37,945 bases of DNA from Reclinomonas americana ATCC 50394 (Eukaryota). The first letter of the stretch is position 1, and every line of letters starts with the position of its first letter. A model generated the notes under the pieces. The model had not been told where the DNA came from. It did no database searches and saw nothing but the letters and a program-made list of their open reading frames with translations. Positions 13,569-37,945 of this stretch are shown here, one piece after another. The stretch is from contig PS015084.1 of the NCBI GenBank assembly GCA_048213135.1, forward strand, positions 61,406 through 99,350. Direction: 5' to 3'. The position numbers were made by a program, and so were the translations under genes.

Positions 13569-16500
13569 TTAGAAGGCGAACGCCAGCAGCGCGGCAATGG
13601 CCATCAGCACCACAGTCCACAGCGACGAGGTCGCGGCGAAACCGGCACCACCAGTCGTCGACACACGCAGGTTGGCCGACGGGATCGACTGGCCGAACGA
13701 GTTGACGGCGCGCACATTCACCACGTACGGCGTGCCCGGCTGCAGGTTCGACTGAGTGAACGTGTAGTTGGCGCGCGACGACGACGTCGAGTCGGTGGCG
13801 TTCTTGTAGCCGAAGATGACGTTGCCGCCGTTCTCCGGGAACGTCTGGATCTGGTAGCTGGTGATCAGACCGAGACCAGTGTACACCGGGGTGGAGAAGT
13901 TGACGGTGATCGAGGTGTTGGTGTTGGTGCCCTGAGTCGGGGCGGCCGGAGCGGCAGCCTGGCCCGTCTGGGTCAGAGCGCCCTGAGTCGGCGTGCCAAT
14001 GTTGTTGTTGGCGGTGCCCTGCGAGCCCTGGCCGAGACCGACATTGTTGCCACCGATCAGCACCATGCGGTAGCGCGACGACGGCTTGATGGTCTGGAAC
14101 AGCTGCACGCAAGTGCCGGCAATGGCCGGGTTGGTGCCGCTGCCGAGCGTGGCAGTGTTCATGCCCAGGCCGTCAGCGGCGGCCGGGTTGCCAGTCGACG
14201 CCAGGAAGCGGGTCGTCCACTGCCAGAACACCAGGTAGTAGGTGGCGGCCGCAGTCGTGCCCGAGCCCACCGCAGTCCACGACACGCGGTACTCGTTGGC
14301 GGCGTAGAAGTCCAGCGACGGGGTGCCAGCAGCCGGCACAATGCCAGTCGTGGTCACCGGCGACGCCTGAATGTAGATCGACAGCGAGCTGTTGCCCGTG
14401 CCAATCGAGTTGGTCGCGTTGAGGAAGAAGCGGTAGAAGTTGCCGTTCACCACCGTCACAGACGCCGTGGTGTCGGCAGCGCCCAACGCCACACTCGGGC
14501 TTGTGGTCGTGGCCGACGCACCAGTCAGAGTCTGCGCAGAGATGGCAGTCGACGCGCCAGTGGCAGTCGTCCACGAGAACGCAATCGCCGTGCCAGTGTT
14601 GCTGGTCACCGCAAAGTTGGTCTGGTCGTTCGGCACCTGGCCCGTCAGCACGTTGTTGTTGAGGCCGTTGCCGATGATACCGTCGCCAAAGGTGGCCTGA
14701 GTGGTCGACGTGCCAATGCCGTTAATGCCGCGCACATCGACAAAGTAGTTGGTGGCGTCAGTGAGGCCGCGGATCACAGCCTGCTGCACCGAGGTGGTGT
14801 TCTGGGTCAGCGTGCTGGCCGTAGCCGCGCGCCATGACACCTGCCACTGGTTCACGAAGCCCTGGCCGCCAGTCTCCTGCGGCTGTCCCCAGCTGAGCCA
14901 GATCGAGGTCGAACGCTTGAGCAGAAGGCTCGACGACAGCGACGTGATGCCGCTCGGGCGCTGCGGCGACGTGGCCGTGGTGATGGTGATGGCCGACGCA
15001 GACCAGGCAGTCTGGTAGCCGTTGAACGACGCCACGCCAATGCGGTACTTGGTGTTGGAGTTGAGGCCGTTCACCAGCAGCGACGAGGTGGTCGAGCCGA
15101 GCGAGCCAGTGAACTGGTTCACGAACGAGTCCGGCACGAAGGTGGTCGAGGTGACGTTGGTCAGGTTCTGCACCAGCACCTGCACGCCGACAAAGTTCGC
15201 GAAGCCGTCCGAGGTGGTCAGCGAGTACTGCGTGCCCTGCACAGTCGACGGCGTCGACAGCGTGAAGGTGGCGTAGCCGGAGCCAGTCGTGCCAGCCGAG
15301 CCGCCAGTGGTCAGAGCCGGCAGCGGGTACGGGCGCACAATCGAGTTGGCAATCTGCGGCAGAGTGCCCGACTGAGCACCGTTCTGCGTCGAGGTCACGC
15401 CAGAGTCCGAGCGGGTGTTGGTGGCCTGCACGGCGTAGGTGTACGACTTGCCCGGAATGGTCGGGAAGTTGAAGTTGGTGGTCAGGTTCGTCCACGTGTA
15501 CGTGCGGTTGCAGTTATTGGTGTTCTGCGTCACAATGTAGCCGTTGATCGAGGTGCCACCGATGCCAATCGGCGACGCCCACGAGATGTTGGAGATGGTG
15601 TCCTGGTAGTAGTTGCCAGAGAAGCCCACACCGCCAGCAGAGCCGCCCTCCGAGTTGGCCACACCGCCAACGAGCGTCGGGGCCGCCGGGGCGATCGGAG
15701 CATCGTCTGTGTGGTGGGGGAGAAGGGAGGCGGTGGATGAGATACTGATATTCAAAAGAAGTAGAGGGTCCCCTGTCTATCTCGCATCCTATATAAGTCT
15801 TTCTCTCCCCTCTCCTCTTTCTTTCTCTTCCCTTTCCCTCCCTTCCCGCCCCCCTCCCTTCCTTCCCCCTTTCACGCAACTGGTGTTGTGAGTGGTCTGC
15901 GTCAGCGGGCCAGCAGCCGTGGCCGAGTTGGTCGACGTCGCAGTGGCGTACACTTGGTACGTGTACGACGTGTTGGCCGTCAGAGTTGTGTCGGAAGCGT
16001 AAGTGGCGGTCAGCGCCCAGCCAGTCGGCAGGGTGACAGTGGCCACAGACACCGGGGTCGCGTTGCCCTGGCCGCGGAAAACGGTGAAGCCGGTCACGGC
16101 GTTGGTGCCAAAGTTCTGCGGAATCGTCCACTGCAGGAAGATGTTGTTGAGGCCGTACTGCGTCACGATCAGGTTGGTCGGCGGGCTCGGCACGACACCG
16201 CTGGAAGCCGGAGTGGTGAAGTTGATGGCAGTGCTGAACGCGCACGTCACCGGGTTGGCGGTGGTGCCAGCCGGGTTGAAGGGCGAGGTCGGGAAGGCAA
16301 TCGAGAATTGGTTGCTGGCGCAGATCTGCAGGTTGACCGAGGTGCCAGCCGGCAGGCCGGTCACGTCGATGTAGTAGGTCGACAGGTTGTTGGTCCACGA
16401 AGGCGCAGCGCCGCTGCCGTTGGTGGCCGGGATGGAGCTGGTGTCAATGTTGGTGGCGGTGCCCGCAGTGGCCGCAGTCACCTGCGAGGCGCTCGTGGTC

Positions 16501-19500
16501 GAGTACACCACACGGTAGTTGGTGACGTTCGGGTTGGGCGTCGACAGGTTGCTCTGTGAGGCGCTCGAGGTGGCAGTGTTGGAGCCGCCGACGCTGATCG
16601 GGGTCGAGAAGTTGAGGCGCACGCCAGTCGAGAACAGGCGCGAGTACGCCACGTTGGTGGGCGCAGCCGGCACAGAGCCGTTGTTGTCGGTGGTGCCCTG
16701 GATGGAGCCGGCCGCCGATTGAGTGGCGTTGTTGTTGACAGAGATCTTGGCCTTGACCGTGTACTGCGTGGCAGCCACAAAGTTGTTGGCGGTGCCGCTC
16801 ACAGTGAAGCCGGTGATCTGCGCGTAGAAACCCGAGTTGTACGAGAACAGGCCGTTGAACACGGTGCTGAGGGTGCTGGCGTTGTTGTTGTTAAAAATGG
16901 CGGTCTGGTCAGCGCTGGCGCTGGTCACCGTGTAGGCGACGGACGGTGCGGCAGCAGTGTCGCCCGAGCCAAAGGTGGCCGGGAAGTTGAAGGCGACGAC
17001 AAACGACGTCGAAGTGACCTGGTCCACAGAGCCAGTGTACGGGGCGACCGTGTAGCCAGTCGGCGTGGCCGGCGCACCAGACGCCAGAGTCACCGTCACG
17101 GCTGTGGCATAGTTCAGGGTGCTGTCCGTAGGACCGGTGCCGTTGTAGTAGGCCGCAGCCACAGTGCAGCTGGTGCCAGACAGGCCAGTGACCTTGGTGA
17201 GCACGCGATTGCGTGTCAGACTAGCGGTGTTGGTGTCGGTGATGCCCAAATCACCCAAATTGGCTGCCGAGGTAGCAATCGTGGAGGTTGAGCCGCAGAC
17301 CGACTTGACGTACCACGCGGCAGCGCCAACCACGCCCACATTGCCCGCCGGAGCCTCCCACTCCACCCACGCCGAGGTCGACGTGACGTAGCGCACGGTG
17401 GACGACATTGTCGGCGCCGTCGGCGACACGACAGCGGTCGCCGGGACAGCGCTCGTGGTCAGGGTGCCGCTCCAGGCCGTGGCCGAGCGGTTGACCTGCG
17501 ACTCAGTCCACACGTTGATGGTGTACGAATAGCCGCCAGTGGTGCCGTTGTTCGTTAGAGTGCCAACGGTGTAGCCGCGCCACGTGCCAGCTGAGTTCGC
17601 ATCAGTGGCGGTCACAGTGGTGGGACCAGTGTTGTCGCCGACCACAAACGCGCGATAAGCAGTGGTGCCTGTGACGAAGTTGCTGGTCTGCTGCACAGTC
17701 AGCGAGGTGTTGATGTCCTTGAAGTTGAGAGCGTTGTTGCCGGGGGTCTGCGACGAGAGACCGCCCTGGCCGACGAGGTTAGTCGGCAGCTGCAGCCAGA
17801 TGGTGGCAGAGGTACTGCTGATGTAGTAGATGGCATTGGTGCCGGCGGTGGTGATCGGAGCGCGGGCTGTTCGGAGGGAGAGCAAGTGTGAGCTCACCAA
17901 TGGCGAGAGGAACAGAGCAGGTATAAGAAGCGCAACTGGTGGCGGTCCAGAACGGGGTACCAGACGGCGCGACAGCGGCAGTCAGAGAATTGGTGCTGGC
18001 GTTGTTCACGACGGAGATATTCACCAGCGGGTTGTACTGGCGGCCGGGGAGGAGGCCCGAGAGGGTGACCTGCCAGCCGTCGAGGTGACCCGTGGCGGGC
18101 TGGCTGCTGTTGGCCGCGGTGGTGAGGTTCGCCGTGGGGACAGCGATACCGCGCACAAAGGCAGAGCCAGTGGCAGTGAAGGAGTAGGAGGCGACAGTTG
18201 CGGCGTTGGAGTTGGCCTGGTTGGCGGTGAACGTCGCACCGCCATTCTTCATGGTGATGACGAAGGTCAGCGAGGTGTCGGTAATGTCGACGATGGTGAC
18301 GGAGTCGGGGTTGGAGAGGGCACCAGCGTTGGAGCCGGCGGTGGAGGGAGTAACAGCGGTGTTGACGCTGGTAACGGTGCCGGCAAAAGCAGTGCCGCCA
18401 ACGACATCGTACAATGTGGCCGCAGCGGCGAGGGTGACAGCTCCAGCAGCAGCGTAGCCCGTGCCCTGGGCGTTCACGCCAGTAACGGTAAGGGCGCCGG
18501 CAGCGCTGATCGAGATGTTCAGAGTGGCATTGCCAGCCTGGTTGATGGCTACACCAGTGTAGTTGGAGGACACGCCGTATCCAGAACCCGCAGTGGTCAC
18601 AGCAACGGCAGTGACTGCACCGACACCTTGTGTGGTGAACAGCAGCGCGCCATTGCCCGCCGGGAAGGTGGCGCTACCGCTCGTGCAATTGGGGGTGGCG
18701 GCGATCTTGACAGTATCGTTGTTCGCATAACCAGAGCCAGCAGCGTTACCGATGGCAACTGCGGCAATGGTTCCGTCAGCACCGACAGTCACCGTGAGCG
18801 TAAGAGCATTGTCACCAGCGCCTGTCTGCTTGGTTGTGGCGCAGTTCGCGAAAACCTTGCGGTAGCCAACGCCGGCAGTGCCAGTAGTGACAGCCGCAAT
18901 ACCGCCAGCAGCAGCGTTGGACACAGCGGCGTTGCCCGTGCAGCAATAGAGCGGCGCAGCGGTGCCGCCGCTGACCAGCGTGTAGCTCACGCCGTAGGTG
19001 GTAGTGGCACCAGGAGCAGCCGCACCGCGAATGGCGACAAGGACCTTGGCAGCCGACACGGCAGACCCGGCAGTGTTGCCGTCGAGGTACTGGAAGTCGG
19101 TGGGAGCCGCACCATTGTTGGCTGCGTTGGTACCAGCGACAAAGGTAATGGCGTTCACACCACCAAGCGGCGCAGAGGTGCTGGCGGCAGTCGCCACCAC
19201 ACCACGGTTTTGCGGCGAGCCAGCGTACATCACGACAAAGTTGTTGCCGAGCGTGACAAAGGCGGCAGCACTGGTGACGGCAGAGCCGGAGCGGTTGTAC
19301 CAGATGGCGTTGGTGGGCGCAGTCACACCGAGTGAGGACTGCATGACAACGTTTTGCGAGACGGCGGTGGTGCCAGGGCCAAGGTTCGTCGCCACAAGCG
19401 TCACGGTGCCGGCAGCGGTGGCCGAGAAGGTCATCGTGCCAGTGAGGTCGCTGGCGCCCATCGTCACAGTGCCGCTTGCAAAGCCATTGACGTTGTTCGG

Positions 19501-21543
19501 GTTGCCAATCGTGTAGGGGTTGGTGGAGGCGCTGAAGCCACCAGTGCCAATGACAGTGGCAGCAGCCGTATTCGCCAGGCATTGAATCACCGTGTTGGCG
19601 GTAGTCACCGTCCAGCAAGCCACCAGAACCGGAGCCGGCAGCGTCGGGTTGGTAGCGGCAGCAGACAATGTGAGTGTCAGCTGAGAGGCAGTGTCGAGAG
19701 CGAGCGTGCCGTCACCAGAGTCGTTGACAGCCGTCACGCGGATGACGTAGGCGCTGATGTTGGTCGTCGTCAGCTTCGAGATCAAAACGTGACCGCCAGA
19801 CACACGGCCAAAGGTCTTGTCGACGACAGGCGTGCCAGTGAACGTGGCGCCAAAGGCGTTGTACAGCGCAGTGCCGCCGTTGGCCGACGCCGCAGCCTCC
19901 ACCTTGAAGCTGCTGATGATACTGCCGCCAATTCGCTGCGGTGAAGTCCAAGTGACCAGACCGCCGTCAGAGGCAGGGGCAACGTTGGCGGTGGCGGCAG
20001 CTGAGGTCGGGAGTGTCTGGGCGAAAGTAGCGGTCTTGTCCGGAGACTGCTTGCCGTCCTGGGTGGTCACCGTGGCGGTCTGCGAGAGAAGAGGAGAGAG
20101 GAATGTGATGTGAGCAAGCTGTTTCACTAACAATACAGAAAATCACGAAAAACAAAGACGCAACAGAGCTCCACGGGCCAAAGCCCCACTGGCCCACAGC
20201 GCGAGCGCGCACCACGTAGCCAGTGCTCGGCAGCAGAATGCTGGTCGCGGCATCGGCACCAGTGCCAGACACCACGCACGTCTGCAGGGAGAACGGGCTT
20301 GAGTTGAACGGGATGGTGGCCGCATTGGCGCCGCCAGTGCCGACAGTGGTCTCAGTGTAGAAGGTCACCGGAGTCCACACCGTCAACGAGCTGCCAGTCG
20401 AGCTGCGGATCTGGACCTGGAAGAACGGAGTCTGCAGCTGGTTGTAGTTGTTGGTGTTGCCCGTCATGCCGGAGCCCGTCTGACCGAGCTTGATCGGCGG
20501 CGAGAACGACAGCACGAACGAGGTGGCCGACGTGTAGCTGATGGCCAGGTTGGTCGGCGTGCGCGGGGTACCGCCGAGCGGCACCGTCACGACCTGCGAC
20601 GAGGTGCGGACGCCCTCACCGTACAGGTTGACCGAGTAGGCCTGTTGGAGAGGAGATGAGTGGGGGATGGAGGGGAGGGAGGAGGAAAAGGAGAAGAGAA
20701 GACACGCAACAGCGATGGTGTACTGCACGCCCTCCTGAATGTTCTGGTCAAAGTAACGCAGAATCATGCCGTAGCAGCCGTTGCCGCCAGTGGCAGGGCC
20801 GCCATTGGCCGCAATGGCGTTGACCGACGAGCACTGTTGGTGGAGGGGAGAGGAAAGGAGAGAGAGGGTGAGCAGAGGAGAGGAGAGGGACAGCGGATGG
20901 AGGAGCAGGCAAGCAGACGCAACAGTGTACTTGGTGGTGCCAGTTGTGCTGGCCACGTCGACACCAAACTCGGTGGGCGGCGCGTTGCCCTGGTTGATGG
21001 GGGTCGTCCAGTTGACCCAGATGGCCGACTGAGAGCCGCTCGGGGCGGAGGTGTCGAGGTCTGCCAAAGGAGAGGGAGGGAGAGAGAGGGAGAAGTGAGG
21101 AGGAATGCACGCATCAAACAGAGAGAGAGAGAGAGAGATAGATTGTGCAAGGCACGCACCATCCTCGCCCACAGCCTTGATGATCTGGAATTGCTCCGGC
21201 GCGTTAGAGCTGCCAGGGGCAAAAGTGGTGGTCTGGGCGTCTGCACATCGTTGTCGAGAATGGGTGAGTGGGACAGATCATGCAGGCGAGCAGAGAGGCA
21301 CTGTCACTCAAATATAATACACGAATCCACTGCCACGCACGCACGCAGGAGATGCACACAACAGAGTCACAAGAGACTTACATGCACATAGACACGCACA
21401 CACACACACACACACTAAAGAGGGGGAGAGAGAGAGTGACATCGCGCGTGTCATCACACACACGCACACAAACACGCAAACTCACCAGCCAAGAGGACTG
21501 CGCCGAGGAGCACGAGGCACACGATGGAGAGGAGCCAACGCAT
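13569..21543 (-). CDS. Large secreted fibronectin type III repeat surface glycoprotein, likely GPI-anchored, ~2380 aa, 8 exons
   Basis: Exons 21543-21486, 21240-21160, 21060-20924, 20833-20711, 20641-20165, 20079-17937, 17866-15881 and 15706-13569 total 7143 nt in one frame. Signal peptide MRWLLSIVCLVLLGAVLLA; many FN3 motifs (e.g. NLQPGTPYVVNVRAVNSFGQS, YVVRARAVGQWGFGPWS); terminal hydrophobic tail LWTVVLMAIAALLAFAF with no cytosolic part. Confidence 0.92.
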
Positions 21544-30581: not shown

Positions 30582-33219
30582 CTACAACCCATGCTCCAAA
30601 TCCCCGGCAAAATGATTCGGTAATTGTGCAGGTGCTGCTGCGAGTGCGTTAACTGGCGGTTGGTCACCGACCGCACCTTCTCTGTCATCGTTGCCGTTGT
30701 TTTGGTTGTTGCGGTCACCGCCGGCACCGTCGTCTTGGCGATGGTGGTCTCCTCCGCCGCCGGCTTCTCCGCGGGAGTTGCGGAAAGTGTTCCTGTCCTT
30801 TAGTGGTATATGCTGAAATAGGGCGTACAGGAAGACGCCAAGCATCTGCAGATTGGTCAGGTAGAATTTGACTACGAGAGGGGTGGCCGTGGAGTTGCCT
30901 GTTTCCGCGAAAGAGTGAGCTCGGGTGATGAATGAAGCTGCTATTCTAGTTGATGCGCGCTCACCAGCCTCGGTAACAAAGTGGAGTTTGGGAGTCAACT
31001 TGTCGGCCATGGTGCGACCGAGGCGGAACCACATGGCTGTGAGACGAACCATTTCCATCAGTGCGCACACGGAGACAGCGATTGGCGATGTCGACATGCA
31101 ACGAACCGCAAAAGAAGATGGACGCAAAGAAGACAGTAAAGACCCACGACAACCATGGGCGTTTGCCTCGTCGCGATTGGCGAATGTTAGTTGTGGAGAT
31201 GGCGGGATCTTCGTCGACTTCGCCAAAGAGTCTGGTCGACTGCTCGGCCACACGACTGCAAACAGTGACAAGGAAATGAGTTTCGCAGCACTTGCACTTC
31301 CAAACGGTGCATCGACTCACTCCAAATTCTTGTACACCATCCACAGCACGAGCGGAAAGAAGATTTGGTTAACGAAGATGTATGCCGATGTGCCGCCACG
31401 GACAGAGTCGATACCGCGCACGCCGGGCACCGGGGAAAACCAGAACATGATGTTGGAAAACGTGGCGCATTCTTGCGCAATCCACGAGATCGTGTAAAAG
31501 CCGTCACTGGCAAATGTCCAACGCATGGAGAACTGCACACGAGGTAAGGAACAATGTGAGCCTCTCGACAAGAGATCCCACTCACCTCCTCGTGGCGTGT
31601 GATGCGGGCGCGAGCGAGTGGCCAGACAAGACCAAGGGCACCAGCAGTGGAAACAAGTGGAATAGTAAGACGCGCCCAGCCCCGAGTCAACACGCCAAAC
31701 ACCTCCTCTGCGTCACAATGGGTGCTCGTGAATGCCAGGTCAAGAGAGAGAATGACTGATGTTGCTCACCATTGTTGACGGCCGCCATGGCACCTGCCAA
31801 CACGAACAGTCCGAAAATCACCAATGCCCACAACCACATGGACTTCTTCCTCAAGTTCGGATCAGCGGCTGCAAGGTCGTTCGATGAGGTGGGTCGAGCA
31901 GCTGCCGACGCAGCATGCGGCATCTCGCGCATTTCAACTGCCACGTGCTGCGGCGCGGCAGGCTCGACGATCAGCCCTCCCACCCCTTGTGGCGGGTGAG
32001 ATTGCTCCTCTGGTGGCGCATCCACGTCCTCCATCTCAACGTCGGCACTCAACATAAGCCTGTTGTGCTCCATTTCCTCCTCATTCGGCTGCGATGGCGA
32101 GCCCTCGAAGGCACGGAGAATGCCGAAGAAGCTCTGCAGGTGAAAGATGCCTCCGAAGAGCACCAGCAGGCGGTACCACTCCTCGCGAGTGCCCTCGATG
32201 TTGTGTAATAGCCCCCAGCTGTGTACCAGAACGAGCGGGCGAGTGAGATGGAAGACGAGGAGGACGAAGGACTCTGCGCATCGCAACTTGATGATATCAT
32301 TGCGGAGAACGAGCACCACTCCCAGCGAGCCATGAAAGCCGATGAGAACCACCAAGGCAGCATAGTAGAAGCGGCCTCGTCTGCAGTGGTCGCATGGTCC
32401 GTGCTCCACCACCATCCTGGTGGGATCGTGAGGATCCGGCTGTGGCCCCGGTCTCGTTGGGCACACTGGCGCCGTCCGTGAACACAGCGGGTACGTGACG
32501 GGGCGTCCGCGAATGTTGTTCAGCACAATGAACCACGACGCGCTGCAGGAGAATACATCGAACACGCTCAGTCCAACGCCCAGCACGAACGCCGCAGCGC
32601 CGCCTGTGCTGGCGCACACGACCATTTGCAGGATCATGGCAGCGATCTCCAGCATGCATGTGGCAACCAAAATGACCTCGTACATCACTGCCTCGTACAT
32701 CACCACCAAAAGGAAGCGTTCATCCAGCGATACCTTGGTACGCTTCTGCAGCCGCGGAGAGAGAAAGAGATAAACAGTGAGAAGATGATTTGTCCGCCAT
32801 TTCGCGCAGTGTGTGCACTCTTGCAGAAGTCTCACCCACAGCGCCAACAAGGCGGCAAACGTGCATATCATGGCCAGCAGGCCGGCGACGTACACAAACG
32901 GCTGCGGGTCGGCAAAGATGGCAGGCAAGAAACTGGTCGTTGAGTCGTCCGCGTTCATCGCTGCTCCATCGCTGGTGCCATATGCCACCACTGAGAAGTG
33001 GCGAAGGTGAGCTGGCAGTGAACCAACGCGCACACACGCAAACACACACATGCTTGCGCACGACCACGCCACACCTCCCATGAGCAACGGAACCGGAACA
33101 CCCAGCAAGAACGGCATCATGCTGCGTAAGCTGAAGCGCCAGCACCGTCCGCAGGTCATTTGCGGTTCATTTTGCACCGCTCGATCGAGCGCAACATGTT
33201 GCGTCGCCGCCGCCGCCAT
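30582..33219 (-). CDS. Orphan multipass membrane protein, multi-exon
   Basis: Consecutive minus-strand ORF segments are joined by short phase-compatible GT-AG introns (e.g. ALW|KRTK, VNN|EEVFG, HEE|FSMRW). About ten hydrophobic segments and a G/D/N-rich tail ending at TAG 30582. No family recognised. Confidence 0.7.
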
Positions 33220-33563
33220 GCGAAAGATTGTTGTCAGAATTTCCTGTCACAACCCGGCAACGGGACAAAAAATGCGTCGACACCCATCGTCGGGTGGCAT
33301 GTTTCACGAACTTAACGGGATGGATGGCGCTGCATGTTCGTGTGTACATTTAGCGGACTGATACAACCGCAGGATTCGTACGACGATTTCTGCAGTCTCG
33401 TGCATGCATTCATGATCCGACGTGGCCCGACACGTGCCCAACGCCAAGCCCGAGTTCCATGAGGCAACCGCGCACACACTCGACACCACGTATCCGCAGT
33501 TCCGCGAGCTCTTCAGCAGCAGCCGACCAGTGGCGCAGCTCGTTCCCAACCGCCGACCAAGCA

Positions 33564-36500
33564 CTACCTCGACGCCGATGCGCCGCGCTCTTCCATCGCC
33601 AGGCACCGCTGGTAGCACGCGTACAGTTCCTCTGCAGCCTCCTCCGTGGACGGCCGCTCATCTCGTCGTTGCTGAAAACAAGTGAAACGTGGAAAACTTG
33701 TCAGATGGCGCGACACAAATGGCAGAAATAGCGACGGAATTGCTCACCCAGCAGCGAGAGATCAGCACGCCGAGACCAGCAGGAAGCCGTCCCAACTCCT
33801 CCACGGTTGCAGCCCTCCGTCCGTCAATGATGCGGTCACGAATCTGAGGGCTGAATGAGCAACGGAGCACCAGCCGAGCGGTGCGGGAACAGCACACAAA
33901 CGTAACCAGCATGTCGGCCTGTGGACCATCTGGAATGTCGGCGAACGGGATAGACCGCGTGCAAGCACACCACAGGATGGTGGCCAGAACGAAGACCTCA
34001 GATCGGCGGTTGTAGACCAGCGACTGAAATGCATAGTAAGAGAACCATACGCACGTCCACACAGAGGCGGAAAAGGTGTCTTCTCACCAGCGGATCTTCG
34101 ACGAGGTCCTCTTCGGGGCACGTTGCACAGTTCTCTGGGCACCAAAATCGCGCAGTGCCAACTCTCTCCATAAACGACTGCTGCGTGAGACTGGCCGACA
34201 CTGTGGACAGCCCAAAGTCGCCGAGCTTGGCCACTGGCAGCCGTGGATCCGTCACATCCAGGAAGACATCTGTTCCGTGGAGTGTCAACAGAGATCTAAC
34301 AACACAGGCAGGTCACATGCGATGTAACTTGCGGTCTTCAAGTCGCGGTGGAGTAGCCGCTTTGAATGCACAAACGCCAAGGCTTGGCACACTTGCCACA
34401 CCACGTGCACACGCTGGTTGGAATGCATAAGAAGCCTTCCTGTCGTGCAGAAGAACCCCCAACGCAAACATACCGTGGAGAGCGGGACGTCGCGGAACTC
34501 ATTGAGCCACTGCTCCAAATTCAGCGGATGATCGCCACCAACTGACTCCAGCACGAGTCCCAGTCCTTCTCTCCCACGATGACTCATGCCATAGCATCGA
34601 ACAATGTGCGGATGCCACTCGTCCACACCACTGTGCATCACTCGCTGTCAGCGCCCCCACACGAGAGTCGCAAACACATCTCCACGCAACTGCAAGTACG
34701 TCATAACCACCGCTTCCTTTCTACATGTCTCCTCGGGTGCATTAACACCCCAGAAACTCTTCAACACTCTCGTGGTCACCGTCCCGTTCGGCGACCGTAC
34801 ATTGACGAGACGCACAGCAGAACGAGCTGGCCAAACCACTACAATCAGCACCAAAGCTACAGTTGGCGCAACATGCATAGCATCACTCAACTGTTAGGGA
34901 AAAGACATGCATCGTCTCTCTCGATCACGTTCTCGCTCGGAATCAAGGGGATGGAGGCCACCAGCGTGGTCCAGTTGCCGTCGAGCAGCTCCACGATCGC
35001 ATTCCGCGGTCGGTATTCTGCAGGCAAACATGAGTCCTTAACTGCGTGAGCATGGCACTGAGACAGGAGTCATTTGCGCACCGACAGGGATGTCGTCGAA
35101 GCATACAAGGTCGTCAGCGTTGCCAAACATCTCCACACATGCGCGCAACGCTCGATTGGCGTCGTTGTAAAAGTCACGGGTGAACGGCAGATCGCCTTTT
35201 GCCAAGTGCGAGATCGAATTTCGCAGGCTGCGCACAGACTTTATCAGCTGTCGCTTCTCCTGCACCCGCAACAAATGACAAGAAAAGTGAGAGATATCAA
35301 TGGATACAATTCAGTCGGCATCGAACATACCACGGATTCTGGCAGCAGGTCGACAACACAGATGGCAAGCACGTCCTTCCGCGACTCTGGGTGAAGGCGC
35401 ACCTCAGCGTTGCCCAGCGACTCATCCGGGACCGACATGAGCACAAAGTAGGCCTTCAGCAGCAGCTTGATGATCAAAGCCAAATCGAGAGCTGGCGTTG
35501 GTTCTCCAGCCTGGAGGGCGGCTGCAAACCGCGTAAAATGCCCGCTGCTGTCGGCGTCGACAAAGAGGTAACGCTTGCCGCGATTATACTTTCTCCATTT
35601 GCAATATCTGCACACGTGAATGACGATCAACGAAAAACAAACCTCACAGCGAGCAACCACTCCAGGTACCAACCGATTGTTCGTGCGTCCATCCACCAGC
35701 TTGGCGAATTCCAAGCCCGCACACTCGGCTCGTGCCATGAGAGATTCAAAGAGGCGCTGTAACACAGGACCAACGACCTCCTGCAATCGGTGTCGGAGCA
35801 CATCTCTGCGTCTCCGATAGCTGCGCCAACAGTTATTACAAGGGGCATATCTACACAGATCATTCCTCACTACTGGCACGCACCACGCTGCCACATCGTC
35901 ACTGCCGTCGTCGACTGTGGTCACACAAACAGGTGCATGAGCAGTGCGTGCACCACTATCAAATCGGGCGACGCTCACCGGTATCCTTGACGGCGTCAAT
36001 CATGCGCACATCGAGATCCATCCTGGTGAGCCTCTCATAGATACGTCGCATGGACGGCCGAGTTTCTACTGTGGCGTCGGCCACGGTGCCGTAGGCGCCA
36101 GCGCAAAGTGGTAACAGGCACTCCGGGATCAGTTTCCGCAGGCAGATCGGCGCATTCGTTACCACCGATGGCAGGAGGCTGCGGAATGCCTTCGCTATCG
36201 CATCCGCGGTCCGATTCTCACAATTCTGTTCTACCAGCCACTGCGGCACCAGCTGCCACATGTTGACATGTGCAAAAATGAAGAGTAGCAACAGACCAAA
36301 CTGGAAGACATCGGTCCGCATGATGTCAGTGATATCGGCAACCTGCAATACACGCTCGGCGTGAGTGACGACGAGAATAGTCTCCTCAGGCCGGCGGCAC
36401 TCTGCCAAATCTGTGCATTCACACTCTCACCTGACCTCGTTCCTCCAGGCGCAACAGTTCCGGATCCAGAAGGATCATGTGCTCCTTGGAGGCGTCATTG

Positions 36501-37945
36501 GCGATGGTGCGCCACGGCTTGCCAACCAAAATAAGCTGACACCACGGTCCTCCGCCAAGGTTGCCACCGTCGCGCAAAATACCAGGATGGCGCATACGCA
36601 CGGCTACGTGGACGTGAGTCAAAGCACAACGCATCGCAAACAAGTGTCAATCGATCGCAGTACGCACCGTGCGGGTAGAGACTGCCGTGCGCCAACTCTC
36701 CGTCGTGCAGAGCGGCGAGAGCACTGGCCAGCTCGCGAGCGACTTGCACCTCGACCAACAGGGTGCGATCGCGCATTGATTGTGACTCCTTAGACGCGGA
36801 ACTGAGATCGACAACGCGCTCCCCGCTGCTTGCAAATGCTCGCCCCTTGCGCAAGTCCTCCTCCTGCGCACCGATCGCAAAAATGTGTCAGCATTTCGTG
36901 TCCTTGCGACTGGCGATTCGTTCTTGTTTGGCGTAACTGGTGGGGGCGCGGCCGCCGACTGTGGTGTTGCCTGTCAGAGGGAGATTAGACGAAATTCACA
37001 CGGTGGCGATGAAGCAAGCGAGACGAACTGTATCCACATAAGGCTGGTAGGGAGGTGGAACCCTGTCATTCGATGAAGCCGCCTGCATGCAACACGAAAC
37101 AGTGAGGGGCGGATGATTACTGATGGCGGCGCTCTTGCGCGTTTGCAAGGGGGGCAGAGCGAAACAGCATGCGGCTGGTAGGGAGGTGGAACTCTGTCAC
37201 TCGACGGTGTCTCCTGTAGACACGCCACAGTGAGGATTTGCACTTTGTGCAGGGGCACATGGGGGACTAACCGAAACAACATGTGGCTGGTAGGGAGGTG
37301 GAACTCTGTCACTCGACGGTGTCTCCTGTGCACACGATGGTGTGAAATGCTGCTTGCACGTTTCCGCACCAAGCAGGGAGACAAACCGAAACAACAGGAG
37401 GTTGGTGGGGAGGTGGAACTCTGTCACTCGATGGTACAGCCTACATACAAACACGCAAAGGTGAGAACTGTTTCTGAACACTGCCTGCACGTGAATGTGC
37501 ATTGGTCATACCGACTCCGCATACGGCCGGCGGGGAGGAGGTATTCTGTCACTTGAAGACGCCTGCAAACAAGCACGTGAGGACTGCGGTCAACTTTCAA
37601 GATCTTTCATGGAATGCATGACACACCGAACCACTGGGGCCCTCGTTTGTCTGCACAGAGACTTGTGAGCAGACGCCTTCGCATTAGATAGCATGCGAGT
37701 GAAACGTACCGGTGGAAGGCAAAGGACACGTGGCTGAGTGGTGAGCGGCAGCATAGAGACTGGACTTAGTGTAGGCATCGATTCGGTTTTCTTGTCGCCA
37801 GTCAGCCGGCCAGTCGCTCGCTCATCAACAACTGTGCCTCGCCGCCATGTTGCTTTGAGTACGTACTCACTGCGCGAAGTGCTGCGCACGCATATGCACA
37901 CTTACCACCGACGCTCCCACCGTGAAATGTGCGGCGCCGCGCGAA
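33564..37945 (-). CDS. Multidomain protein: PPxY repeats, pseudokinase C-lobe, HEPN-like domain, TKL-like kinase; 5' end uncertain or outside the window
   Basis: Kinase ~34830-33564: RVLKSF, CRKEAVVM, HPHIVRCYG, HRDLKTANV, KLGDFGLS, GTARFWCPE, LISRCW..ERPS. HEPN-like ~35600-35080: LDLALIIKLLL...IKSVRSLRNSISH. Pseudokinase ~36860-35980: ARELASALAALH, HGSLYPH, LLDPE, TDVFQFGLLL, RPSMRRIYERL. Some linking junctions (~35980-35600 and ~34910-34830) are ambiguous. Confidence 0.7.
37029..37562 (-). repeat. Five tandem exon-intron units encoding SDRVPPPYQP-type repeats
   Basis: Phase-0 exons 37562-37512, 37440-37387, 37325-37272, 37213-37121 and 37082-37029, each preceded by YAG. Confidence 0.85.

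Follow-up and report, generated by a model that had tools for sequence, protein, structure and literature searches.

A predicted Reclinomonas americana gene with a candidate HEPN-type element between a dead kinase C-lobe and a divergent protein kinase

Does a protist gene join a HEPN ribonuclease (RNase) to kinase-fold domains in an arrangement of its own? To our knowledge, Ire1 and RNase L are the only eukaryotic cases of a kinase fold coupled to a HEPN RNase; the coupling underlies the unfolded-protein response and interferon-driven RNA decay, respectively. The question is raised by a locus in a 37,945-nucleotide (nt) stretch of DNA from Reclinomonas americana ATCC 50394 (GenBank assembly GCA_048213135.1, contig PS015084.1, positions 61,406 to 99,350), here called the window. 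A preliminary description, made from the letters alone, had placed a pseudokinase, a HEPN domain and a kinase in a single protein on its minus strand. All of the motifs named there do lie on that strand in the order given, with the R-N-S-I-S-H of the supposed HEPN active site exactly at 35223-35206. We read the locus as one intron-rich gene for an orphan protein of ~830 to 1000 residues, with two kinase-fold parts and a divergent HEPN-type module as its middle, and we put the probability of this reading at about 0.42. The motifs, a kinase, a predicted hairpin and an open spliced frame are all present. What is secure in this picture is ordinary, namely a kinase gene that is divergent and confined to its lineage and that contains a decayed internal duplicate; what is unusual rests on one helix, in a protein without known relatives.

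Whether the locus is one gene depends on how its reading frames join. The raw six-frame listing of 33564-36887 (minus strand) contains a chain of open pieces whose frame changes from piece to piece, a pattern typical of a gene with short introns. The motifs fall in different raw frames and come together in one open reading frame (ORF) only once 18 short GT-AG introns are removed. These introns were placed so that the pieces join, and two doubtful ones were revised after all in-frame alternatives had been listed; first splice choices with introns of 20, 33 and 55 nt were replaced for reasons of frame or length. The resulting model is as follows:

33564..37778, minus strand: predicted whole gene, 19 exons, 996 codons, ATG at 37778-37776 and TAG at 33566-33564

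The TAG agrees with the start coordinate of the preliminary description. The introns measure 147, 71, 61, 58, 38, 58, 74, 64, 88, 64, 71, 64, 38, 69, 60, 59, 64 and 76 nt, so that 15 of the 18 are 58 to 88 nt long. Nearly all of the acceptors are CAG, and CT[GA]ACAG ends three introns, where a motif resembling a branch point would then stand at a distance of 7 nt from the 3' splice site. The spliced frame of the model as first built held 0 stops, compared to 28 and 31 in the other two frames. A crude codon-usage test of frame, trained on the neighbouring large ORFs, favored the model frame in 10 of the 12 exons at 36863 and lower coordinates, the two middle-region exons among them. Since the two exons that it missed are kinase exons verified by Pfam, this test is noisy. 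Among the short exons upstream of 36863 the model frame was best in only 1 of 7, and the 5' end of the model is therefore provisional; an alternative in-frame start lies at ATG 36776-36774. A single 462-nt contig from a small, possibly DNA, sequencing run is identical to 33567-34028 and retains the intron 33747-33672, so it carries no splice information. In this model a dead kinase C-lobe, the motif helix and a kinase follow one another in one frame, as had been proposed, with HEPN reduced to a candidate label for the second of them. Read from its N terminus, the protein would comprise a possible proline-rich PPxY region, the dead kinase C-lobe, a middle region of ~285 residues and a divergent Ser/Thr kinase.

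The signal that points to a HEPN-type module comes from one exon of the middle region:

35082..35259, minus strand: 59-codon exon, predicted alpha-hairpin, HEPN-like element (AlphaFold2, Atlas, profile scans)
35223-35206, minus strand: R-N-S-I-S-H (R588, N589, H593), from the gene model

The covered part of Anantharaman et al. 2013 (PMC3710099) describes the HEPN domain as a four-helix up-down bundle in which an Rx4-6H motif sits between helix 3 and helix 4, the R is followed by a polar N, D or H (N being the commonest), an acidic Ex3[KR] is often found in helix 2, and inserts between helices 2 and 3 are frequent. R588-N589-S-I-S-H593 fits Rx4-6H with a polar residue after the R. When the 59-residue exon was modelled alone, AlphaFold2 (AF2) returned a helix at residues 2 to 20, a loop of 7 residues (21 to 27) and a second helix at 28 to 45, with a predicted local distance difference test (pLDDT) score of 77.5. 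The motif, at residues 13 to 18 of the exon, lies at the C-terminal end of the first predicted helix and is followed by a loop and a helix, which at the level of predicted secondary structure is the HEPN placement. The nearest neighbours of this exon in the language-model Atlas were Csm6 HEPN (0.90 and 0.89), followed by HEPN_Apea, Cas_Csm6_HEPN, Ymh, DUF4209 and DUF4145. HEPN families were thus the nearest of the named clusters, and 8 of the 10 best neighbours with a family share family or clan with the best.

Profile comparisons pointed to the same helix. On the stop-to-stop ORF, the Pfam family HEPN_Swt1 scored 12.4 bits (cut-off 27.5) with an expect value (E) of 0.2 over profile positions 75 to 108 of 115. 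We also built our own Swt1 profile from 30 cyanobacterial HEPN_Swt1 loci, the family being present in 46 of the 401 cyanobacterial genomes searched. With its filters off, hmmsearch found the motif helix to be the best place in the whole protein for this profile (3.2 bits; E 0.005 for one sequence), and hhalign aligned 32 columns over helix 3 and part of helix 4 with 38% identity (P 0.049); a global hhalign result with the same profile was discarded as meaningless. An ungapped scan of the whole protein with helix 3 had its top place at residue 575, where it scored 26.4; the maximum in shuffles was 11.6 +/- 3.9, and of 300 shuffles about 1 (fraction 0.003) reached the observed score. The scans with the upstream helices had top or near-top places at residues 415 and 518, upstream of the motif helix and in the right order. 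As far as sequence comparison goes, the HEPN similarity is genuine at a single helix but unproven over the domain as a whole.

The other helices of a HEPN bundle would have to come largely from the exon before the hairpin, so that intron 35330-35260 would interrupt the domain. The middle region spans residues 381 to 664, with two cysteine clusters and several helices, and its larger exon contains the following:

35331..35914, minus strand: 194-codon exon of the gene model
35882-35829, minus strand: Cys cluster in the 194-codon exon
35807-35790, minus strand: second R-D-x3-H in the 194-codon exon, in an Arg-rich stretch close to where a long predicted helix starts
35648-35637, minus strand: CxxC in the 194-codon exon
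35612-35598, minus strand: CxxC in the 194-codon exon
35486-35457, minus strand: helix DLALIIKLLL in the 194-codon exon

The two CxxC are spaced as CxxC-x9-CxxC. Two R[NHQD]xxxH motifs occur together in 0.28% of shuffles of the middle region, by a pattern that was chosen after seeing the data, and the position of the second, R-D-x3-H, in its helix differs from that of the HEPN motif. In the gene model an E-x3-K straddles the exon junction, where helix 3 starts. The 194-residue exon matched none of 1.84 billion representative proteins in a phmmer search, nothing in a word-index search or among metagenome contigs, and no family in Pfam, PADLOC or NCBIfam; its residues 30 to 194 had no usable match in the Atlas. 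AF2 without an alignment gave it a pLDDT of 36.5 and no usable model. A PDB sequence search with the two middle exons returned only chance-level matches to phycocyanin, talin and ribosomal chains. Prediction of the two exons as separate chains in complex with zinc scored 0.12 against a mark of 0.34, which speaks neither for nor against the module.

The domain after the middle region is, by its sequence, confirmed as a protein kinase:

33564..34890, minus strand: Ser/Thr protein kinase domain, residues 665-996, six exons (Pfam and motifs)
34839-34813, minus strand: VVWPARSAV at the position of the Gly-rich loop, from the gene model
34770-34759, minus strand: RVLK, with the Lys K708, from the gene model
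within 34725-34705, minus strand: alphaC Glu (E723), from the gene model
34350-34336, minus strand: HRDLK (HRD at 802-804), from the gene model
34219-34211, minus strand: DFG (826-828), from the gene model

A 120-residue piece (34285-34647) that reads through one in-frame 60-nt intron matched Pfam Pkinase at 34.2 bits (cut-off 31.7; E 2.4e-8) and PK_Tyr_Ser-Thr at 30.2 bits (cut-off 23.1; E 3.5e-7). The piece with the DFG matched Pkinase at E 0.034, and kinases in the PDB matched the kinase ORF weakly (E ~1e-3) around alphaE and HRD. K708, E723, D804 and D826 are all present, a Gly-rich loop is absent (VVWPARSAV) and CPE replaces APE. The preliminary description, which had listed the Lys, the alphaC Glu, HRD and DFG and had seen no clear Gly-rich loop, was right on this domain. 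Its HRDLKxxN and DFGLS hint at a Ser/Thr, tyrosine kinase-like (TKL)-like class.

A second kinase-fold part lies at the other end of the middle region:

35979..36863, minus strand: kinase C-lobe-like region without catalytic residues, residues 137-380, exons 36863-36668, 36603-36431 and 36342-35979
36689-36678, minus strand: HGSL in place of HRDL, from the gene model
36529-36512, minus strand: LVGKPW in place of DFG, from the gene model
36466-36452, minus strand: DPELL, with DPE kept, from the gene model
36312-36295, minus strand: DVFQFG, kept, from the gene model
36060-36049, minus strand: RPS, kept, from the gene model

The alphaE and catalytic-loop stretch of this region matched the C-terminal kinase of the same protein in BLASTP at E 0.011. 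Local alignment of the two parts is colinear from alphaE to RPS (z 2.7 to 3.1), with 4 of 300 and 3 of 300 shuffles reaching the alignment score, and two control pairs in the same test scored at or under the shuffle mean. None of the three exons matched Pfam at E up to 10, and no solved chain in the PDB matched the largest of them in a sequence search. A kinase N-lobe, sought in every frame of 36864-37945, was not found, nor did Pfam match anything in 37590-37901. Only equivalents of alphaE to alphaI are recognised, and the region thus falls short of a complete pseudokinase with N-lobe and C-lobe. The proposed pseudokinase must be cut down to its C-lobe half, for which the evidence cited earlier (HGSL, no DFG, and PE, DVFQFG and RPS all present) holds good. 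These alignments lend modest support to the N-terminal part being the remnant of a dead kinase C-lobe, which probably derives from an internal duplication of the kinase.

Several observations weigh against a HEPN-type middle. When the middle region is shuffled, RN...H alone arises in 2.8% of cases, and when the whole protein is shuffled, in 6%. The Atlas score of 0.90, based on 166 shared features, lies at the border of the scores that shuffled proteins occasionally attain, nor can it count as evidence separate from the motif. All HEPN families stay under their Pfam thresholds, and HEPN_Swt1 is not listed when the exact 59-codon exon is scanned. HEPN_DZIP3 and KEN (Ribonuc_2-5A) are unmatched at E up to 10, a search in which the HMMER filters may hide very weak matches; with HEPN_DZIP3 matching neither middle exon, the DZIP3-type HEPN suggested in the preliminary description found no backing. 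Helices 1, 2 and 4 of our Swt1 profile score no better than shuffles (fractions 0.52, 0.48 and 0.62), the 194-residue exon that is needed as the source of helices 1 and 2 is recognised by neither Pfam nor the Atlas and has no usable AF2 model, and a clear Ex3[KR] is not seen in candidate helix 2. The joining of the hairpin to the kinase hinges on an intron of 38 or 71 nt predicted in the gene model. Because the kinase has no Gly-rich loop, its ATP binding may be poor. Finally, the motif may lie outside selection, with no homologue found in any collection searched; beyond the searches with the 194-residue exon, these comprised word-index searches with the kinase ORF and with the 59-residue exon (E up to 10) and a search of metagenome contigs with a kinase exon. 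Of the HEPN claim, then, the motif, its place at a helix end, the Atlas neighbours and the sub-threshold HEPN_Swt1 match stand, and against it stand the family thresholds and the unlike helices 1, 2 and 4. We judge the odds that the middle has a HEPN-type four-helix fold to be slightly short of even.

The main rival explanation makes the protein a plain signalling kinase: the dead C-lobe is what remains of a tandem copy of a TKL-like kinase, in a pairing of the JAK or GCN2 type, the middle is a lineage-specific zinc-binding and helical linker or regulatory domain, and R-N-x3-H is a coincidence with no RNase function behind it. This is a serious possibility, though not one that we would call probable. 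It sits well with the alignment of the two kinase-fold parts with each other, with a HEPN likeness that is confined to one helix (helices 1, 2 and 4 being unlike), with HEPN families that all stay sub-threshold, with a 194-residue exon of no recognisable family and with a motif that turns up in 3 to 6% of shuffles. It has more difficulty with the motif helix, which on the HEPN helix-3 profile stands far above shuffles (fraction 0.003), with the motif standing where HEPN domains have it, at the end of a helix that is followed by a loop and another helix, and with language-model neighbours that are consistently HEPN families.

A further possibility is that the HEPN-like part and the kinase belong to separate proteins, which turns on a short exon between them:

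34929..35017, minus strand: short linker exon from the HEPN-like hairpin to the kinase, its frame joined through introns 35081-35018 and 34928-34891

If the 38-nt intron 34928-34891 were retained, translation through the hairpin would end at a stop at 34889-34887, and the kinase would have to be made separately or as an alternative product from an ATG at ~34878. The stop does come after the linker exon in the linker's own frame, and the intron at the junction is 38 nt long, which is unusually short, or, from an in-frame alternative donor at 34961, 71 nt long with a weaker GTGGCC donor. However, the junction has three in-frame GT-AG solutions that all use the same strong acceptor, CTAACAG after a pyrimidine tract; a second gene beginning ~10 nt past a stop would be unusual in an intron-bearing eukaryote; and codon usage favors the model frame on either side of the junction. 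We consider two separate proteins improbable.

We give as little credence to a decaying or mis-modelled locus, a fast-evolving and possibly non-functional duplicate whose open frame is partly a product of intron choice: relatives are absent from all collections searched, both kinase-fold parts are degenerate (one without an N-lobe, the other without a Gly-rich loop), the scaffold has 7 N gaps and 6 of the 7 5' mini-exons failed the codon test, but across its 996 codons the spliced frame is free of stops (the alternative frames of the first model contained 28 and 31), intron length is tightly confined to 58 to 88 nt in 15 of the 18 cases, the kinase keeps its catalytic Lys, Glu, HRD and DFG, and an independent DNA contig is identical over 33567-34028.

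If the locus does encode one protein with a HEPN-type middle, the last ~110 residues of that middle, from DLALIIKLLL through the R-N-S-I-S-H hairpin, would be a minimal and very divergent HEPN module resembling Swt1/Abi2. Like other HEPN RNases, it would have to pair with a second such module before a cutting site exists, and the flanking kinase-fold domains would supply and control this pairing through self-association or autophosphorylation. The protein would then be an analogue of Ire1 or RNase L that was assembled independently of them. By analogy with those enzymes, an active, kinase-gated RNase is conceivable here but unlikely. What the preliminary description put forward, control through dimerisation or phosphorylation and a part in antiviral or cell-death responses, is likewise analogy, and any defence or stress role is inferred. 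We find it equally doubtful that the full picture will hold, namely that of an independently evolved, Ire1/RNase L-like protist enzyme in which a minimal Swt1-type HEPN RNase with a zinc-binding insert lies between two kinase-fold halves, one dead and one live, that act as a dimerisation and phosphorylation switch for RNA cleavage, and in which PPxY motifs could tie the protein to WW-domain partners. If true, it would be a second, independently assembled coupling of kinase and HEPN with another domain order, making their control logic a recurrent solution, and it would offer a compact model for switching on a HEPN site by kinase-fold pairing.

The PPxY motifs belong to the provisional 5' end of the gene model:

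36938..37562, minus strand: provisional block of six short exons, from the in-frame translation of the gene model

Within it, five tandem units of ~110 to 130 nt (36971-37562, minus strand), each with a conserved core amid diverged flanks, alternate with short introns, and a sixth exon of 33 nt closes the block. The core codes for S-[SN]-D-R-[VI]-P-P-P-x, and three of the five units have PPPY (PPxY). All five units have a 5' CAG|G junction, four of the five have GT after the core, and several core substitutions among the units are synonymous in the S-[SN]-D-R-[VI]-P-P-P-x frame; the codon-usage test did not support the frame of the repeat-unit exons. The block looks like a tandem duplication of an exon-plus-intron unit.

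The window itself is part of a draft eukaryotic scaffold with 7 runs of N totalling 961 bases, and its gene layout is compact. Purine-rich microsatellites are numerous in it, with (GA)n, (AG)n and GGGA-type repeats abundant between genes, and Rfam and tRNA scans over the window gave no match. About 320 nt downstream of the kinase gene lies an uninterrupted ORF of 519 codons (31687-33246, minus strand) that matches no Pfam family; because it is rich in hydrophobic stretches, its product is probably a membrane protein. Fibronectin type III (FN3) repeats occupy four long open pieces of 735, 730, 787 and 436 residues in changing frames at 13569-21277 (minus strand), with Pfam fn3 matches reaching E 1.4e-24. 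Together these four pieces look like a single giant FN3-repeat gene with few introns.

How does the predicted protein compare with known systems? JAK and GCN2 are tandem pseudokinase-kinase proteins, and here too one chain carries a dead kinase-fold domain on the N-terminal side of a live one, apparently through internal duplication. Unlike in those proteins, the dead copy is a C-lobe only and ~285 unrelated residues separate the copies. DZIP3/hRUL138 is a eukaryotic, lineage-expanded HEPN family with a hydrophobic D-x-x-L-L helix upstream of its motif; its profile found no match here at E up to 10. The Swt1/Abi2-like clade is the only HEPN family with a profile signal in this protein (E 0.2, and the helix-3 match to our own profile), although the score is well under the cut-off and helices 1, 2 and 4 are not recognisably similar. 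In the covered part of PMC3710099 the members of this clade include bacterial proteins of the Ava_2192 type as well as CXorf38, whose HEPN domain contains an inserted zinc ribbon, and the CxxC...CxxC upstream of the candidate helices here recalls that insert as described there. The partners that PMC3710099 names in that part for the clade include PIN, AAA+, dsRBD, NACHT and DEATH, with protein kinase not among them; a kinase is likewise absent among the partners given for the DZIP3 and CXorf38 families, and KEN is the sole eukaryotic HEPN family for which a Ser/Thr/Tyr kinase partner is named. A HEPN domain wedged between a dead kinase C-lobe and a kinase was not found in the literature covered, namely part of PMC3710099 and listings of papers on HEPN with kinase or pseudokinase domains.

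The comparison that matters most for the proposed module is with Ire1 and RNase L. The KEN family is undetected here at E up to 10, and whereas KEN directly follows the kinase, the motif in this protein lies ~230 residues past the RPS of the C-lobe. Instead of closing the chain at the C terminus, the candidate module has a dead half-kinase before it and a live kinase after it, and ankyrin or lumenal sensor domains are absent. The likeness, known here from sequence, is that a kinase-fold domain and an R-N-x3-H helix occur within one polypeptide. Ire1 and RNase L are activated through the pairing of their kinase-fold domains, and if the HEPN reading of the middle region holds, activation by kinase-fold pairing would by analogy be the natural mechanism for this protein as well.

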